Positions 1,632-18,526 of a DNA stretch of 64,000 nt are shown here, piece by piece. The notes under the pieces were generated by a model. That model was not told where the DNA came from and did no database searches. It saw nothing but the letters and a program-made list of their open reading frames with translations. Origin of the DNA: an uncultured Chloroflexia bacterium (GTDB lineage Bacteria; Chloroflexota; Limnocylindria; Limnocylindrales; CSP1-4). Made by a program: the position numbers and the translations under genes. Location of the stretch: NCBI GenBank assembly GCA_963715295.1, contig CAVQRP010000006.1:155585-219584 (forward strand), in the 5' to 3' direction. Every line of letters begins with the position of its first letter. Within the stretch, counting starts at the first letter, position 1.

Positions 1632-1708
1632 CGTTCACTGCTTCCGTCGATGGGGGACATCGCATGAGGCCAGGGGTCTCAGACGTCGTGCCAGGTGCGT
1701 GTCGGGGC

Positions 1709-1796
1709 TATCGTGCGATCGGAGCGCTGTAGGCTTTCTTTCTGAGCGTGATGTCCGAAGCGGCGAAGGCCTCGGTCATTGTGCGGTTCGCGAGCA
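1709..1796 (+). repeat. array repeat copy A (both arms present; promoter and tRNA-Pro segment deleted)
   Basis: Left core TATCGTGCGATCGGAGCGCTGTAGGC is joined after 8 nt to the right-arm sequence TGAGCGTG...GAAGCGGCGAAGGCCTCGGTCATTGTGCGGTTCGCGAGC. Confidence 0.8.
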
Positions 1797-1982
1797 CGAA
1801 ATCGTCCGACGCAGGCCTTGCCCAGCTGGCGCCCATGGTGCAGGGGTAGCGCAGCCTGCCACTTGTATCCGATCGCTGGGGTCCGGTGTATCAGTCCCGT
1901 GTCGCCTTCTCGAAGGCCGTCAGGAAGACCTCCCAGCCGGCATCGTCCAGGGGCGTGTGCGCGAGCATCGGGTACGTATGGC

Positions 1983-2619: not shown

Positions 2620-2830
2620 GTGTCGGTTGTGATACGAGCGCTGCAGGCCCATCGGTGTCGCTATCGAAGCGGGCTGTGCACCCCATCCACGCAGGGACTT
2701 CGTCGGGGTGTAGCGCGGCGGTAGCGCACATGCTTTGGGAGCCCACGAGGGGTTTGCGGTGAAGGCTCAGGGGTCCCACGCACGATGGGCTGAGCGGCGA
2801 AGGCCTCGATCATCGTGCGGTTCGCGAGCG
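2620..2830 (+). repeat. array repeat copy B (contains a tRNA-Pro 5' fragment at 2704-2742)
   Basis: Degenerate left core (GATACGAGCGCTGCAGGCCC), GTCGCTATCG box, and tRNA nt 1-39 with 2 D-loop differences. Then GGTTTGCGGTGAAGGCTCAGGGGTCC...GAGCGGCGAAGGCCTCGATCATCGTGCGGTTCGCGAGCG. Confidence 0.9.
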
Positions 2831-3581: not shown

Positions 3582-4145
3582 TCACCACCCCTCGAGCGGT
3601 CGCACCGAGCGCATGGCGGCGGTCGCCTCGTCCATGTCGAAGACTGTCGGGTCGAAGTCCAGCGGCGCCCATTCGCGCAGGTGGTCGAGCTCGGGATGTG
3701 CGGGATCCGACAGCGCGTCAAGCAGGTCCTCGTAGCCCATTGGCCCCCCGCAATCCTCGGGCGGGCAAGCCATGCTTCCGGCCAGGCAGTTCGGACCATT
3801 GAAGTCCGACCGCTGCGGGCTGATTTCCTCGACCACGACGTCGTGCTCCCAGCCATCGCCGAAGTCGTAGTCCCATCGCAGCTTCGAGCCCACGCCGGGC
3901 AGTACATCATGTAGCTGAAACGCGCGTTCGTCGAGGTCATCGTCGGGCCACTCGGGGTCGGGCATCGCGTACTTGGCATCAGCGCCTTCGAAGGCGTGCA
4001 GGTGTCCACCGAGCCAGCCCATCGCTGCCTCCAGGATGGCTGCCAGCTCAGCCAGGTCGATGTCGGAGCGAACCGTGATCCGTCGCCACACCGGCGGCTT
4101 CACCGACCTCAGGGTGATCTTCAGCTGGTAGACGGTGTCCTCCAT
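3582..4145 (-). CDS. plasmid pRiA4b ORF-3 family protein
   Basis: Start MEDTVYQLKITLRSVKPPVWRRI (ATG at 4145). Hallmarks YDFGDGWEH and CPPEDCGG. This family is typical of mobile-DNA contexts. Confidence 0.8.
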   Translation of the reverse strand: MEDTVYQLKITLRSVKPPVWRRITVRSDIDLAELAAILEAAMGWLGGHLHAFEGADAKYAMPDPEWPDDDLDERAFQLHDVLPGVGSKLRWDYDFGDGWEHDVVVEEISPQRSDFNGPNCLAGSMACPPEDCGGPMGYEDLLDALSDPAHPELDHLREWAPLDFDPTVFDMDEATAAMRSVRPLEGW

Positions 4146-4274
4146 GTCGTCTCCTGGTCGGCGATGGCTACTCAGCCTGACTGATCGACTGTGTCGTCCC
4201 GCGCCATTGTGGCTGCTCGACGCAACCCGACCAGCGTATGCTCGTCGCTCAGCGCTTGGCTTAGTAGCCGCGTC

Positions 4275-4347
4275 ACAGCGGCATTCGAGCGCTGTAGGCC
4301 CCTCTGTGTCGCTATCGGGACGCCCGCCGCAGAGTGTTCCGGGAGCC
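4275..4347 (+). repeat. array repeat copy B2 (left arm plus collapsed tRNA fragment; right arm missing)
   Basis: GCGGCATTCGAGCGCTGTAGGCCCCTCTGTGTCGCTATCGGGACGCCCGC, followed by CGCAGAGTGTTCCGGGAGCC, a collapsed version of GCGCAGAGGTAGCGCACATGCTTTGGGAGCC. Confidence 0.7.
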
Positions 4348-4367
4348 CTTCGAGCCACGCCACCTGG

Positions 4368-5325: not shown

Positions 5326-5542
5326 TTATCGTGCGGTTCGAGCGCCGTAGGTCCATCTGTGTCGCTATCGGGGCGCCCGTGTGTACCCTAGTCCACGCAC
5401 GGATACCGTCGGGGTGTAGCGCAGAGGTAGCGCACATGCTTTGGGAGCCTACGACCGGTTTGCGGTGCAGGCTCCGGGGTCTCGAGCGTGGACCGCGAAG
5501 CGGCGAAGGCGTCGATCATCGTGCGGTTCACGAATGTGAGCG
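5326..5542 (+). repeat. array repeat copy C (contains a tRNA-Pro 5' fragment at 5410-5448)
   Basis: Complete unit: TTATCGTGCGGTTCGAGCGCCGTAGG, GTCGCTATCG, GTGTGTACCCTAG, and 39/39 identity to tRNA nt 1-39. The right arm ends ATCATCGTGCGGTTCACGAATGTGAGCG. Confidence 0.9.
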
Positions 5543-7633: not shown

Positions 7634-7840
7634 CGGCGGTTCACCTTCGAGCGCTGCAGGCCCCCTGCTATCGCTTGAGGGCCGCGCTGTGTACCCTAGT
7701 CACGCACGACCTCGTCGGGGTGTAGCGCAGAGGTAGCGCACATGCTTTGGGAGCCTTCGGGGGGTACGGCGCAGGCTCCGGGGTCCTGAGCGTGGTGGAT
7801 GGAGCGGCGAAGGCGTCGATTATTGTGTGGTTCGTGAGCG
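7634..7840 (+). repeat. array repeat copy D (contains a tRNA-Pro 5' fragment at 7716-7754)
   Basis: Left core CGGCGGTTCACCTTCGAGCGCTGCAGGCCCCC, GCTATCG box, GTGTACCCTAG, and 39/39 tRNA identity. The right arm ends GATTATTGTGTGGTTCGTGAGCG. Confidence 0.9.
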
Positions 7841-7929
7841 TGCGAGCCCAGAGATCTGCCTCGCACAGATCTATGGTCCTGTACGCTCGTCCCCTGTGCT
7901 AAGGTGACTACCTTGGTGACCACTTAGGC

Positions 7930-8178
7930 ATGAGGTACGACATGGCGGAGATCGGTATCAAGGAACTGAAGGCGACCACCTCATCGGTCATCGACGAGGT
8001 CGAAAGCGGCTCTGCCTACGTCGTCACACGGCGCGGCCGACCTGCCGCGGTTCTCTTGCCGGTCGACGAGGCCGAGGACCTCGTTCTTGCCAATGCCGAC
8101 GAGTTTGTCCGCCAGCGTCGACTCGCCCGCGCTGACTACGCCAAGCGGCGGACGGTCAGGCTGGAGGACATCGACTGA
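7930..8178 (+). CDS. Phd/YefM family antitoxin
   Basis: 82 aa with IGIKELKATTSSVIDEVESGSAYVVTRRGRPAAVLLPVDE. An alternative start is at 7942. Inverted repeat AGATCTG-n7-CAGATCT and GGTGAC direct repeats lie upstream. Confidence 0.8.
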   Translation: MRYDMAEIGIKELKATTSSVIDEVESGSAYVVTRRGRPAAVLLPVDEAEDLVLANADEFVRQRRLARADYAKRRTVRLEDID

Positions 8179-8471
8179 CTGCCTATGAGGTCCGGCTCTC
8201 GCGGTCGGCGGCCCGGCAGTTCAAGAAGCTCGGTGACGCTGATCGTGATCGCATCCGCCGAGCCCTCGAGCGACTCGCGCATGACGTCGCCCGCCCCGGA
8301 CGCGTCGCAGGCAAGTCCGTGAAGACCATCCGTGGTGCCGACGACACCTTCCACCGGTTGCGCATCGGCGACTACCGCGTGATGTACGACGTCATCGACG
8401 CCGACCACGCGGTCCTGGTGCTCGGCATCGTCGACCGAGCCGATCTGGAGCGCTGGCTCCGTAGCAGATAG
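8175..8471 (+). CDS. RelE/ParE family toxin (no canonical start codon)
   Basis: My own translation; this ORF is not in the track. LTAYEVRLSRSAARQFKKLGDADRDRIRRALERLAHDV...FHRLRIGDYRVMYDVIDADHAVLVLGIVDRADLERWL*. The frame is open only from 8136 and has no ATG/GTG/TTG. CTG at 8175 overlaps the antitoxin stop (CTGA). Confidence 0.7.
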   Translation: MTAYEVRLSRSAARQFKKLGDADRDRIRRALERLAHDVARPGRVAGKSVKTIRGADDTFHRLRIGDYRVMYDVIDADHAVLVLGIVDRADLERWLRSR

Positions 8472-8517
8472 CACTTGGCAAAGCGGTCGCGACTAGGCAA
8501 ACAGATCGAATGTGCAT

Positions 8518-8597
8518 GTGAGCGCAGAGGTGGCGCTCAGCCGTCGGGAGCCCAGGCGGGGTTTGGGCGAAGCCACGATCATCGTGCGGTTCGAGCG
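8518..8597 (+). repeat. collapsed array repeat copy E0, fused to copy E with no cassette between them
   Basis: GAGCGCAGAGGTGGCGC...GGGAGCC-caggcgg-GGTTTGGGCGAAGCC-ACGATCATCGTGCGGTTCGAGCG. This is a tRNA-fragment remnant with a shortened right arm, and its terminal core is also the left core of copy E. Confidence 0.7.
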
Positions 8598-8787
8598 CTG
8601 TAGGCCCCTGGAATCGCCATCGAGCGCGGGCTGTGTACCCTATCCACGCACGAACGCCGTCGGGGTGTAGCGCAGCGGTAGCGCACATGCTTTGGGAGCC
8701 TATCAGGGGTGAGCGGTGAAGGCTCCGCGGTCCCGAGCGTGGCGGGCCGAGCGGTGAAGGCCTCGATTATTGTGCGGTTCGCGAGCG
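8578..8787 (+). repeat. array repeat copy E (contains a tRNA-Pro 5' fragment at 8661-8699)
   Basis: Complete unit with 38/39 identity to tRNA nt 1-39 (D-loop AGCGG variant). The right arm ends GATTATTGTGCGGTTCGCGAGCG. Confidence 0.9.
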
Positions 8788-8954
8788 TGATCCACCCAGC
8801 TGGAGGTCCGGGCAGAGTCAAGGCTGCCCGGCCCGGCCTACAGGGTCGGCGGGTCTCCCGGAGAAGATGAAGCCCTGGATCGTCCAAGGGTCCCTGTCCG
8901 GCCACTGCTCGAAGCACGACAACTCAGCTTAGCCGCCGGTCCTCCTGTACCAGA

Positions 8955-11164: not shown

Positions 11165-11366
11165 GATCGTGGACGCTCGTGGCTGGCTCTTGCTATCGCC
11201 ACAGAGCCTCGCTGTGTACCCTAGTCACGCACGAACTCGTCGGGGTGTAGCGCAGAGGTAGCGCACATGCTTTGGGAGCCTTTGAGGCTCAAGCGGCGAA
11301 GGCTCGGGGTCCTGAGCATGGCGGGCCGAGCGGCGAAGGCCTCGATTATTGTGTGGTTCGCGAGCG
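11165..11366 (+). repeat. array repeat copy F (contains a tRNA-Pro 5' fragment at 11241-11279)
   Basis: Degenerate left core, TTGCTATCG box, GTGTACCCTAG, and 39/39 tRNA identity. The right arm ends GATTATTGTGTGGTTCGCGAGCG. Confidence 0.9.
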
Positions 11367-11553
11367 TGATTCGCGGCGAACTCCAGATGCTGATGGCCTG
11401 GCTGTCCGAGCGAGCCGCCTGACTCTGACTCCCGGCTTGGCGGCCACGGGATAATCGTCAGTAGCGGGAGGCGACGACGCGTGGCCCGCCGACCATGGCC
11501 GCTGAGGACCACGCCGAGCCACTGGCGAACCCGGCCCGCATTCGGGGGGACGT

Positions 11554-12196
11554 GTGATGGGTCTGCGCCGAAGCTGGTGGATCTCATTCTTCGGGGTACC
11601 GCACGGCCTGCCTGGACGGCTCGGCGTCAGGCTGATGCCGAGGAGCAGCCGGCCGTTCCACAACGTGATCGCCGCGGAGCTGGACCTCCAGCCGGAGGAT
11701 GAGCTGCTCGACGTCGGCTGTGGCTCGGCGACCCTGTTCGTCGACCACGCGGGGCACGTGCGCTACGTCGCCGGCCTCGACGCCTCCGAGCTGCAGCTCG
11801 AGATGGCCCGCCGCCGGCTGGCCGAGCGCATCGCGGCGGGCACCGCGGAGATCGTCGAGGGCGATGCCGACCACTCTGCCCTGGGAGGACGGCCGCTTCA
11901 GCGTCGCCACGTCGGTCAATGCCCTGAAGTTCTTCCCCGACCCGTTGGCAGCGCTGCGGGAGATGCACCGGGTCCTGCGCCCGGGTGGTCGGATGGCGGT
12001 CACGATGGGCGAGGCGGGGACGCCCGAAGGCGCGACCGAGGCCGTGGTCGACGGTTGGGCCAGTGGCAGTGGACCGACGACGCCGCGCAGGCGGCTGGTG
12101 GAGGAGGCCGGCTTCACCGATGTCGACGTCTCGGTGATGCCGGTGTTCTCGAAGGCGCTGCTGGCCCGCGGCATGAAGCGGCGGCAGCAGCGGTGA
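11554..12196 (+). pseudogene. class I SAM-dependent methyltransferase, frame-disrupted
   Basis: The N-terminal part with LDVGCGSATL (motif I) is in the frame of ORF 11554. After about 11875 the sequence continues in the frame of ORF 11699..12196 (TLPWEDGRFSVATSVNALKFFPDP...LRPGGRMAV). Confidence 0.7.
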
Positions 12197-12249
12197 AGCG
12201 GACGCCGAGCGGCAGACCAGCCGCTGGATCGGCGTGTGAGGGCGATCCG

Positions 12250-12990
12250 ATGCGACTGGCACCATCCCTGCATCGACTCGGCGAGGCGATCGTCAGCTGC
12301 TACCTCCTCGAGGAGGCCGGCGAGGTCACCATCATCGACGCGGGCGTGCCCGCCTACTACGGCGACCTGACGGCCGAGCTCGCGGCCATGGGCCGCACGA
12401 TCGAGGACGTCCGCGCGCTCGTGCTGACCCACGGCCACGACGACCACATCGGCTTCGCCGAGCGACTGCGTGCCGAGCGCGACGTGCCCGTCAGCATCCA
12501 CGAGCTCGACGCGGCCCTCGCGCGCGGCCAGGTCGGCAACCCGAGCGCCGGCATGGGCGAGCGCAGGCTCCGTTCCCTGCTGCACTACATGCTGTGGCTC
12601 ATGCGTCACGGCGGGATGCGGACCACGGCGCTGACGGAGGTCGGCACCTTCGACCCGGGCACGACGCTGGACGTGCCGGGCGCGCTGCGCGTCATCCACA
12701 CACCCGGACACACGCACGGCAGCGTCACCTTCCATGCGCCGGGGCACGACGCCCTCTTCGTGGGTGACGCGCTGGCCACGGACGCGGTCATCACCGAGCG
12801 CCGTGGTCCGCAGGTCTGTCCCTTCGCTGCCGATCCCGACGAAGCGCTGGCCTCGCTGGCGAGCATCGAGGAGATCGAGGCGCGCTGGCTGCTGCCCGGC
12901 CACGGGGAGCCCTGGACCGATGGCGTCGCGGCCGCGGTGGCCGCCGCGCGCGAGGTCGGCATCGGCCACCTCGCTCGGCCGAAACGGTGA
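12250..12990 (+). CDS. MBL-fold metallo-hydrolase
   Basis: ATG at 12250 inside the long track ORF 11554..12990. THGHDDHIG (HxHxDH zinc motif), HTPGHTHGS, and a later LPGHG. Confidence 0.8.
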   Translation: MRLAPSLHRLGEAIVSCYLLEEAGEVTIIDAGVPAYYGDLTAELAAMGRTIEDVRALVLTHGHDDHIGFAERLRAERDVPVSIHELDAALARGQVGNPSAGMGERRLRSLLHYMLWLMRHGGMRTTALTEVGTFDPGTTLDVPGALRVIHTPGHTHGSVTFHAPGHDALFVGDALATDAVITERRGPQVCPFAADPDEALASLASIEEIEARWLLPGHGEPWTDGVAAAVAAAREVGIGHLARPKR

Positions 12991-14598: not shown

Positions 14599-14807
14599 TT
14601 ATCGTGCGGTTCGAGCGCTGTAGGTCCCTCGGCGTCGCTATCGGGGCGCCGTGTGTACCCTAGTCAGGCACGAACACTCGTCGGGGTGTAGCGCAGCGGT
14701 AGCGCACATGCTTTGGGAGCCGCTGAGCGCTCTGCGGCGAAGGCTCCGGGGTCCTGAGCGCGATGGCCGGAGCGGTGAAGGCCTCGATTATTGTGCGGTT
14801 CGCGAGC
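14599..14807 (+). repeat. array repeat copy G (contains a tRNA-Pro 5' fragment at 14682-14720)
   Basis: Complete unit: TTATCGTGCGGTTCGAGCGCTGTAGG, GTCGCTATCG, GTGTGTACCCTAG, and 38/39 tRNA identity. The right arm ends GATTATTGTGCGGTTCGCGAGC. Confidence 0.9.
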
Positions 14808-17800: not shown

Positions 17801-18051
17801 CCCTCGTAGCGCTCCACAGCGCTGGTCATGATGGCCATGGCGCGTTCCATGGTCATGGCCCAGTCCTCGGGGTCCATCGCCTCTGCGAGGCTCGTCGAGC
17901 CGACGACGTCGACGAACAAGGCCGTGACCGGACGACGTTCACCCGTTACATGATCAGGCTGCACCACATGGATGCTAGCGGACGGTGCCTGCACCAGTCC
18001 ATCGGACACTGGACGGGTGCCACGCCGGCGACGGGCGTGCTGGAGCTCCAC
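14894..18051 (-). pseudogene. class III adenylate/guanylate cyclase - P-loop ATPase - TPR protein (about 1050 aa), one frame disruption
   Basis: ORF 16309..18051 carries the cyclase domain (VTALFVDVVGST...GDGFMALFG...GINSGEVVV) and P-loop GEPGIGKSRL. ORF 14894..16762 continues in another frame with the conserved helical region and TPR repeats. The frame change is near 16310-16330. Confidence 0.7.
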
Positions 18052-18368: not shown

Positions 18369-18451
18369 TTATCGTGCTATTCGAGCGCTGTAGGCCCTCC
18401 GCTACCGGCTCGAGAGCCGCGCTGTGTACCCTATCCACGCACGAACCTCGT
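18369..18451 (+). repeat. array repeat copy H: left arm and promoter-like segment directly upstream of the intact tRNA-Pro
   Basis: TTATCGTGCTATTCGAGCGCTGTAGGCCC...GCTACCG...GTGTACCCTATCCACGCACGAACCTCGT is homologous to the left arms of copies C, E and G. No right arm follows the tRNA. Confidence 0.85.
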
Positions 18452-18526
18452 CGGGGTGTAGCGCAGAGGTAGCGCACATGCTTTGGGAGCATGAGGTCGC
18501 GGGTTCGATCCCCGCCACCCCGACCA
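18452..18526 (+). tRNA. tRNA-Pro (anticodon UGG), CCA encoded
   Basis: Manual cloverleaf: acceptor CGGGGTG/CACCCCG, D arm GCGC-agaggta-GCGC, anticodon arm CATGC-TTTGGGA-GCATG, variable AGGTC, T arm GCGGG-TTCGATC-CCCGC, discriminator A, then CCA. Confidence 0.9.

Follow-up and report, generated by a model that had tools for sequence, protein, structure and literature searches.

The 17-nt core that closes one repeat unit and opens the next in an array upstream of a tRNA-Pro(UGG) gene appears to be the conserved block at the end of an attP-like recombination unit of ~225 nt. Our preferred reading, put forward tentatively and with slightly less than even confidence, is that this core (motif A) and the GAGCG/GAAGGC repeats (motifs B1, B2, and B3) are arm-type sites of that unit, served in trans by a candidate protein. 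Comparison of the junctions shows that the core motifs are also deletion-prone direct repeats. The anatomy of the units fits the arm-type reading, in that conserved blocks lie at both unit ends, the repeats are direct, their spacing is invariant, and the motifs are nearly exclusive to the arrays.

The DNA analyzed here (the window) is a stretch of 64,000 nt, G000:C6:155585-219584, from a metagenome-assembled genome of 3.0 Mb with 69% GC; related records carry the label 'uncultured Chloroflexia bacterium' and belong to the Microflora Danica project. The tRNA-Pro(UGG) gene at 18452-18526 is the sole intact tRNA of the window. On its 5' side and on the same strand, the unit is repeated at 2620, 5324, 7646, 8577 (unit E), 11191, and 14597, with partial copies at 1705-1799 and 8518-8600 (E0), and the array runs 14 kb past the left window edge, up to C6:141423. 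Each unit is made up of ~85 nt of tRNA upstream region, tRNA positions 1-39 (ending in GGGAGC), and a right arm of ~90 nt of non-tRNA sequence. Between the units lie 0.7-6 kb of cargo, in which Pfam searches of the window array identified MazF, two PIN toxins, Phd/ParE, methyltransferases, hydrolases, an aquaporin-family (MIP) gene, and a cyclase-STAND-TPR gene.

The same unit forms arrays, always with tRNA-Pro(UGG) at the end, in at least 13 genomes of one genus-level clade, and cargo content differs between these related soil Chloroflexota arrays. The array of G042 has ~25 units across 49 kb. As in tandem islands, the tRNA 5' fragments all lie upstream of the intact tRNA-Pro gene and on its strand; as in integrons, small cassettes stand in an array with one recombination-site repeat apiece. 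In a search of genomes from 185,579 species, a 31-nt pattern of the distal right arm was found in one uncultured 'Chloroflexia' clade only. It also occurs in 42 short JGI metagenome contigs, every one of them an array fragment, and had no match in viral contigs. The genomes compared are metagenome-assembled and 57-95% complete.

The junction between E0 and unit E comprises the following features.

8521-8552, plus strand: decayed remnant of the E0 tRNA-Pro 5' half (family D5, 76% identity; nhmmer model positions 98-150).
8521-8536, plus strand: degenerate D-arm of E0, AGCGCAGAGGTGGCGC (sequence and alignment).
8537-8552, plus strand: degenerate anticodon region of E0, TCAGCCGTCGGGAGCC (sequence and alignment).
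8553-8580, plus strand: short right arm of E0, with the proximal remnant CAGGCGGGGTTTG, one GAAGGC-type repeat GGGCGAAGCC, and ACGATC (alignment).
8553-8565, plus strand: proximal right-arm remnant of E0 (alignment).
8565-8580, plus strand: single GAAGGC-type repeat of E0, GGGCGAAGCCACGATC (alignment).
8581-8597, plus strand: shared core ATCGTGCGGTTCGAGCG, both the right-end motif of E0 and the left-end motif of unit E (left core, A_L, plus the start of B1; exact match).

The first-pass annotation had described two units that abut without any cargo DNA, the right-arm core of the first doubling as the left-arm core of the second, and the sequence of 8518-8600 bears this out: the exact core at 8581-8597 runs directly into CTGTAGGCCC of unit E. 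Alignment likewise confirmed that the right arm holds an internal duplication, GCGG(C/T)GAAGGC, and that E0 lacks the DNA between its two copies. This B2-to-B3 segment is absent from E0, and the same short form is present in other units. E0 also has no acceptor strand and no recognisable left arm, and its tRNA part is 76% identical to the family reference, whereas the other internal copies are 93-100% identical. E0 may be read as a unit that lost its left arm and acceptor strand, collapsed between B2 and B3, and lost its cargo through an event between a right core (A_R) and a left core.

An ortholog of the E0/E junction is carried by the JGI contig L051, which is 89% identical to window positions 7650-8790 over 1154 nt. 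Within this alignment, the 43 consecutive nucleotides at 8565-8607 (degenerate B3, core, and B1) are 100% identical; by our own arithmetic, the chance of such a run at 89% overall identity is ~0.008. Since this block is identical in a contig that has diverged by 11%, the junction is old and inherited, an ancestral state instead of a recent event. The block seems to be under constraint while the remainder of E0 drifts.

Matches to the core with up to three mismatches number 10 in the window, compared with 0.69 expected, and none of 100 shuffled sequences reached 10. When the core was tabulated genome-wide in nine genomes, as the first-pass annotation had suggested, the 18-mer ATYGTGCGGTTCGCGAGC gave 36 matches with at most one mismatch, 34 of which lie inside tRNA-Pro arrays; the array matches are all on the tRNA strand, and a reversed-pattern control gave none. 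The extent of the motif needs revision. The right-arm copy had been described as the same 17-mer with one optional C; it carries instead a 2-nt insertion (GGTTCG-CG-AGCG, compared with GGTTCG-AGCG in the left arm) and is thus 19 nt long. In the 5' direction, the similarity between the arms reaches 7-8 nt further (gaTTATY). With its last five bases, the described 17-mer enters a second repeat family (GAGCG, then (G/C)YG(A/T)AGGC), and because a third copy of this GAGCG type, GAGCGCTGTAGGCCC, directly follows the left core, the 17-mer covers two motifs. The shared motif proper is gaTTATYGTGCGGTTCG, after which comes one of the roughly five direct repeats of GAGCG type in each unit. Members of the GAGCG family stand after the left core (B1) and in the right arm (B2 and B3), and a short form, GAGCGTG, stands midway along the right arm and again behind the right core. 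Core copies of the window outside the E0/E junction and the right arm of unit E include the following.

5328-5344, plus strand: left-arm core (exact match).
14601-14617, plus strand: left-arm core (exact match).
18371-18387, plus strand: left-arm core with two mismatches, 65 nt upstream of the intact tRNA-Pro (motif match).
2812-2830, plus strand: 19-nt right-arm core, ATCGTGCGGTTCGCGAGCG (18-mer match, converted from C6 coordinates).
5518, 7822, 11348, and 14790, plus strand: further right-arm cores (18-mer matches, converted from C6 coordinates).

The core is not a constant feature of all units, as had been supposed. Among the seven left arms of the window, three (5328, 8581, and 14601) have it exactly, the one at 18371 has it with two mismatches, those at 2620 and 7646 have a degenerate form, and the one at 11191 lacks it. 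Across the 13 genomes and the metagenome contigs, 43 of 85 left arms have a left core with at most two mismatches. Because A_L is missing or degenerate in the other half or so, several arms adjoining a live tRNA among them, the left copy is dispensable for persistence. As A closes the right arm and opens the next left arm, direct repeats of 17-22 nt bracket the cargo.

The anatomy of a complete unit is illustrated by unit E, whose left core is the shared core given above.

8593-8607, plus strand: B1, the left-arm GAGCG-type repeat GAGCGCTGTAGGCCC and the best-conserved block of the left arm (conservation profile).
8608-8660, plus strand: variable left spacer, the CTGTGTACCCTA box (conserved, putatively the -10 region), and the leader that reaches the tRNA start (alignment and spacing).
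8661-8699, plus strand: copy of the tRNA-Pro(UGG) 5' half, positions 1-39 in ARAGORN numbering, ending in GGGAGC (alignment).
8700-8748, plus strand: proximal right arm, with 13 variable nucleotides, B2, and a variable middle with GAGCGTG (alignment and spacing).
8713-8725, plus strand: B2, GCGGTGAAGGCTC (alignment).
8749-8787, plus strand: distal right arm, best conserved of all non-tRNA blocks in the unit (58 right arms, at least 90% at each position).
8749-8767, plus strand: B3, GAGCGGTGAAGGCCTCGAT (conservation profile).
8769-8787, plus strand: A_R, ATTGTGCGGTTCGCGAGCG (conservation profile).

In general, the left arm consists of A_L (gaTTATcGTGCGGTTCG), B1, a variable spacer, and the tRNA promoter region, and the right arm of a variable 13-nt segment, B2, a variable middle, B3, and A_R. 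Conservation across 44 full units of 13 genomes is concentrated in TTCGAGCGCTGTAGGCCC, CTGTGTACCCTA, the tRNA half, GCGGYGAAGGCTC, and GAGCGGYGAAGGCCTCGATYATYGTGCGGTTCGCGAGCGTG. B1, B2, B3, and A_R are strongly conserved in this set, and the 5' part of the left core moderately so. The three spacers (left spacer, proximal right arm, and right-arm middle) are ~58-61% identical between units. Spacing is rigid: the anticodon boundary lies 13 nt from B2 in 83 of 88 units, B2 lies 36 nt from B3 in 76 of 83, B3 lies 23 nt from A_R in 79 of 81, and B1 lies 37-39 nt from the promoter box in 70 of 77 arms. The unit thus has A at both ends, GAGCG/GAAGGC-type repeats in both arms, and spacing that holds within 1 nt in more than 90% of cases. 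Such rigid block spacing beside free-running spacers fits the pattern of protein-binding sites in a nucleoprotein complex.

The motifs could alternatively be transcription signals. A_L and B1 would then be upstream activator or UP-like sites that travel with each cassette and drive the restored tRNA gene, and B3 with A_R an insulator or weak terminator for transcripts from the tRNA promoters of internal units. The CTGTGTACCCTA box, whose distance from the tRNA start is constant at 29-32 nt in every unit, and the position of B1 upstream of it are compatible with such a role, as is one B3-A_R variant (7805-7818) that forms a weak terminator-like hairpin with a T-rich tail. However, kilobases of cargo stand between the right-arm motifs and the next promoter, no stable fold is seen for the distal right arm (z from -0.3 to +2.2), and a simple sigma-70 scan found no consensus promoter. 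We consider this explanation very doubtful.

Conserved blocks that alternate with variable segments of fixed length also resemble an RNA family, and the blocks could be loops or junctions between variable stems of a structured RNA or of an attC-like single-stranded DNA. A small hairpin between the proximal right arm and GAGCC of the tRNA part is indeed possible (mean z -1.4). On the other hand, the left spacer and the right-arm middle fold no better than shuffled sequences (mean z +0.5 and +0.4, respectively), whole right arms have z-scores near 0, RNAalifold found no consensus helices in the variable segments, and the Rfam match is to the true tRNA only. An apparent B2-B3 stem, which had raised a hairpin or covariation reading of the variable segments, consists of four invariant pairs followed mostly by mismatches, with two compensatory cases in 44 units. 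A folded strand is extremely unlikely as an explanation and is largely refuted by these fold tests. A coding cause of right-arm conservation can likewise be rejected, given that the lengths and indels of the spacers ignore the reading frame and that no conserved open reading frame starts at the core.

Differences between closely related genomes point to where cassettes may enter. The arrays of G014 and G013 are ~100% identical (two substitutions) across the end of one cargo, the left arm, and the tRNA 5' half; ~10 nt past GGGAGC, the right arm falls to ~86% identity, and the cargo beyond is unrelated. In G021, the same stretch of cargo, left arm, and tRNA 5' half leads into the tRNA 3' half; in G041, it leads into a right arm, then another 6-kb cassette, and then a new left arm with a new 5' half. 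This newest cassette of G041 encodes a methyltransferase, APH-like kinases, and a STAND-LuxR regulator, and is without a recombinase. The two comparisons cover the most recent cassette differences; in each, the difference stops at the anticodon boundary instead of the core, which fits entry where the tRNA 5' half ends. In the region where a lambda-type site would have core-type inverted repeats around a short overlap, the intact tRNA reads CATGC-TTTGGGA-GCATG, and the units keep only CATGC-TTTGGGA-GC before they diverge; the exchange point would lie somewhere in the shared ~125 nt. A homologous crossover anywhere in this stretch would give the same picture as entry at the anticodon boundary, which would then simply mark where the tRNA homology stops.

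Older comparisons are mosaic, with variable segments that are nearly unlinked from their neighbors. The probability of a similar left spacer given a similar upstream flank is 0.19 against a base rate of 0.06, and that of a similar downstream flank given a similar right-arm middle is 0.03 against 0.01. The right-arm middle segment is common to two of the 20 pairs with common downstream cargo; the left spacer is common to three of the 16 pairs with common upstream cargo at a cut-off of 0.85, and to one more at 0.82. Cargo is mostly uncoupled from the interior of the flanking units. Linkage between cargo and flank was discarded as a means of placing the crossover, as the units are such thorough mosaics that only a few near-identical pairs are informative.

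The near absence of linkage implies that exchange occurred in every conserved block, and hence that general homologous recombination shapes the units; it could alone explain insertion, excision, and deletion. A and B would then be merely the best-conserved tracts, without a protein role, in a family driven by RecA-type or slipped-strand recombination: a cassette circle would insert Campbell-style via the ~125-nt homology of left arm and 5' half, and E0/E would be a direct-repeat deletion. The breakpoints in every conserved block and the ambiguity of the anticodon boundary speak for this explanation. However, gene conversion should homogenize whole units, yet in all units it is the same three spacers that are hypervariable, and the blocks keep their distances within 1 nt. 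Nor would homology by itself be expected to keep a perfect A-B1 block in the decayed E0 over at least 11% divergence while the rest drifts, and it leaves the origin of the first unit or of new cargo unexplained. We regard recombination by homology only, the main rival to the arm-type reading, as somewhat unlikely.

Deletion breakpoints were traced in the window and in related arrays. Core-to-core junctions are the E0/E junction, a junction at G042:C5:~95212 at which a solitary B3 and core lead directly into B1 (B3, A, and B1 contiguous), and a reciprocal, unit-losing junction at C6:145250. At the last of these, G000 and G021 agree through the MIP cargo end and into the 5' part of the core; after GGTTCG, G000 continues into a right-arm-type end (CGAGTGTGAACC...) and different cargo, and G021 into a full unit. 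Deletions between B2 and B3 occurred in E0, at C6:~153100, in G043, and in G042; between B1 and B3 in G021 and in L003 (the second array of G022); between B1 and B2 at window positions 1705-1799; and between the D-loop GCGGT and B2 in G001. The B1/B2 deletion in the window left two features.

1705-1799, plus strand: collapsed unit with the tRNA half deleted and the left core plus B1 joined to the middle and distal parts of the right arm (alignment).
1778-1796, plus strand: right-arm core closing this collapsed unit (alignment).

Solitary distal right arms are common, and illegitimate joints occur as well, e.g., at the left end of unit 11191. This range of deletions between all kinds of short repeats, together with the illegitimate joints, is also what recombination by homology only would produce. 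The first-pass annotation had offered the core as the actual point of cassette loss. Since breakpoints were found at the core in three junctions, that idea survives, with the restriction that deletions at GAAGGC-type and other short repeats are at least as frequent as core-to-core ones. The core is one of several short-repeat breakpoints and not the cassette boundary.

The core-to-core junctions could alternatively reflect a second, integron-like crossover in which A itself is a site-specific crossover site, and cargo alone, with one A, leaves or enters between A_R and A_L without the reaction at the anticodon boundary. The E0/E and G042 junctions would then be empty sites. Several patterns are in line with this possibility: cargo is mostly unlinked from the interiors of the flanking units; two independent B3-A-B1 junctions and the reciprocal junction break inside the core; left and right cores part exactly after GGTTCG, as expected for an exchange there; and solitary distal right arms are frequent. 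But the most recent differences lie at the anticodon boundary, the left boundary of the shared cargo in the MIP example is not at A, and the interior segments are just as unlinked from one another, so that the unlinking is not specific to A. The absence of A_L from half of the left arms, the lack of a detected recombinase, and ends that are direct instead of attC-like inverted repeats, with no fold signal, also argue against it. On balance, a second crossover at A is quite improbable.

Genes for a recombinase were searched with Phage_integrase in 18 genomes and with Resolvase in 14 genomes (G041-G044 left out). No Phage_integrase (PF00589) match lies in or beside any of the 13 arrays, no Resolvase match lies in or beside any array of the 14 genomes, and Pfam found no recombinase in the cargo of the window array. 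In the arrays, we found neither an intI beside an attI, as in integrons, nor an integrase carried by each array member. The genome of G009 (90% complete, six units) has as its only tyrosine recombinase genes the conserved pair ~40 kb apart, presumably XerC/D, and no resolvase-family match. G042, with its ~25 units, has the conserved pair plus two weaker Phage_integrase matches on other contigs. A Xer/dif reading was rejected: the canonical dif-like site at C9:79735, TTCCGATAATGTAAGTTATGTAACAT, has no more than CGAT(A/T)A in common with the distal right arm, which has no XerD arm. PRiA4_ORF3, sometimes annotated as TnpR, was considered as a resident recombinase and dismissed as occasional cargo of 5 of 20 genomes, its genes being mostly within arrays (four of five matches).

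No carrier was found either. An integrase-bearing element at the tRNA-Pro site was found in none of the 13 genomes, in none of the 42 metagenome contigs, the long ones of which have no integrase or other recombinase, and nowhere in the viral collection. An attP-bearing phage or plasmid as carrier was set aside on the same grounds, with no viral-contig match and metagenome contigs that are all array fragments. Clustering of 196 array open reading frames yielded no family common to all arrays. Counting against the arm-type reading are the lack of a recombinase in or beside the arrays, the absence or degeneration of A_L in about half of the left arms, the lack of units on viral contigs, the lack of a gene family common to all arrays, and the near absence of linkage between variable segments; the first of these points also favors recombination by homology only. 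One further possibility is that the A and B motifs are sites of recombination machinery of a new kind, either a host protein or an undetected recombinase family, for lineage-specific gene capture by replacement of the tRNA-Pro promoter and 5' half up to the anticodon boundary, with cargo-only exchange at A. We consider this version unlikely.

The attP of phage lambda, with arm-type sites for a heterobivalent tyrosine integrase, is ~240 bp long, close to the ~225 nt of the unit. Both have a central crossover region, here putatively at the anticodon stem-loop of a tRNA, a classic target, and short direct repeats distinct from that region in both arms and at fixed distances. Unlike lambda-type attP, no integrase or excisionase gene is found beside the site or in the arrays of the 13 genomes, the element supplies the tRNA 5' half and promoter rather than the 3' half, and the cargo units of 0.7-6 kb are without mobility genes.

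Of the 3919 tRNA-anchored islands in the Islander survey, 159 are recorded with a 5' tRNA fragment; tandems of three or more number only four, and every member of these has an integrase of its own (PMC4383910). The tycheposon model in Prochlorococcus describes island growth beside a tRNA gene, with partial tRNAs left behind (bioRxiv 10.1101/2020.12.28.424599), and this growth model is the closest concept. These islands share with the present arrays an intact tRNA at one end, partial copies between acquisitions, and growth beside the tRNA. In contrast, the present arrays have up to ~25 units in 49 kb, all of them with 5' fragments, no integrase, and a conserved non-tRNA arm of ~90 nt in each unit.

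Integrons, including integrase-less attC arrays, are closest in outcome. They likewise hold many small, toxin-antitoxin-rich cassettes, each bounded by a conserved repeat that resembles a recombination site, with cassette content that differs among related genomes and with empty junctions. However, the repeat ends here are direct, not inverted, there is no hairpin signal and no IntI, cargo stands in both orientations, and the tRNA gene that anchors the array has its 5' half replaced. Tests for the defining features of integrons found neither intI nor an attC with imperfect inverted repeats that folds as a single strand: the terminal motifs are direct repeats and show no covariation. CIMEs (cis-mobilisable elements without an integrase, flanked by the att sites of an integrative element) and Xer-dependent dif modules also have recombinase-less cargo bounded by recombination sites and presumably moved in trans, but no cognate integrase-bearing element was found at the present site in any genome, in contrast to CIMEs, and the dif-like site at C9:79735 does not resemble A or B, in contrast to dif modules.

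Taken together, the preferred arm-type reading can be put as follows. A cassette would join at the end of the tRNA 5' half, that is, at the anticodon boundary suggested by the genome comparisons, and would supply a new promoter and a new 5' half; because it brings both, each internal junction would become a complete unit. The A motif and the GAGCG/GAAGGC B repeats, standing as direct repeats at fixed distances from this boundary, most likely bind a recombinase or an accessory protein that would be encoded outside the arrays and act in trans. The same A and B repeats double as substrates for occasional deletion.

These arrays hold up to ~25 small cassettes, with toxin-antitoxin pairs, methyltransferases, hydrolases, and STAND regulators, and no mobility gene was found in them. 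The best starting point for finding what builds the arrays is the end motifs with their rigid spacing, and they offer a short bait and a minimal recombination substrate. They also predict the junctions expected in long reads: a joint inside GTGCGGTTCG for exchange at the core, and at GGGAGC for exchange at the anticodon boundary. If machinery of a new, lineage-specific kind is at work, the arrays would be an integron analogue on a tRNA gene that operates without the integron integrase. If no protein binds the motifs, plain homologous recombination between promoter-bearing tRNA half-repeats would mimic a cassette system. If a dedicated protein does bind them, the arrays would be a system that captures genes with a result like that of integrons, through another mechanism.

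At locus L078, a partial left arm of the repeat unit runs straight into the following left arm, which it enters at position 23. The two meet at TGTAG, which is common to the tRNA acceptor/D region (GGTGTAGCG) and to B1, the GAGCG-type repeat directly after the left core (GCTGTAGGC). The joint is another microhomology-mediated rearrangement. A different joint, found at locus L016 of genome G008, appears to result from a deletion that linked the post-core GAGCACGAA to CGCACGAAC of the leader (i.e., the stretch before the tRNA start), and the same joint is present in genome G042 (position 17813, array coordinates). The features at these joints are:

L078 2554-2628, minus strand: partial left arm, model positions 18-99
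L016 (G008:C3), directly upstream of the intact tRNA-Pro at about 301756: right-core-like motif GGTTATGTGTGGTTCGTGAGCACGAAACCACGTC

All cores, including that at window positions 8584-8599, contain GGTTCGA within GCG-GTTCGAG-CGC. GGTTCGA is the universal T-loop consensus, and the core is possibly what remains of a tRNA T-arm; it is not scored as tRNA-like by Rfam.

For PRiA4_ORF3 (PF07929), four of the five matches in this clade are inside tRNA-Pro arrays, several of them truncated, and the fifth (in G001) lies elsewhere. The array matches are:

Window 3582-4358, minus strand: PRiA4_ORF3
G021:C8:78115: PRiA4_ORF3
G042:C5:103613: PRiA4_ORF3
G022:C12:140102: PRiA4_ORF3

One cassette also holds a riboswitch, just upstream of a methyltransferase/metallo-beta-lactamase-fold gene (window 11554-12990):

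Window 11458-11545, plus strand: c-di-GMP-II-GAG riboswitch aptamer (58 bits vs. a gathering score of 40)

Elsewhere in the 69% GC genome containing the window (G000), positions C1:388000-389350 are extremely AT-rich (e.g., ATAATAAAAAATAATATATATTATAATTATTAAA), and a dif-like site probably serves for chromosome dimer resolution:

G000 C9:79735-79768: canonical dif-like site TTCCGATAATGTAAGTTATGTAACAT

The largest array observed (G042:C5:73715-122597, loci L033-L035) has approximately 25 units in 49 kb, with tRNA-Pro(UGG) at its end. Further unit fragments occur on three more G042 contigs (C17, C8, and C20), on which ARAGORN found no tRNA. Two fragments in G000 likewise have no tRNA gene nearby:

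G000 C3:339-356, minus strand: solitary perfect right-arm core, close to the contig end
G000 C19:120755-120857, minus strand: degenerate left arm together with a tRNA 5' half

These two G000 fragments indicate that unit fragments exist beyond the main array.
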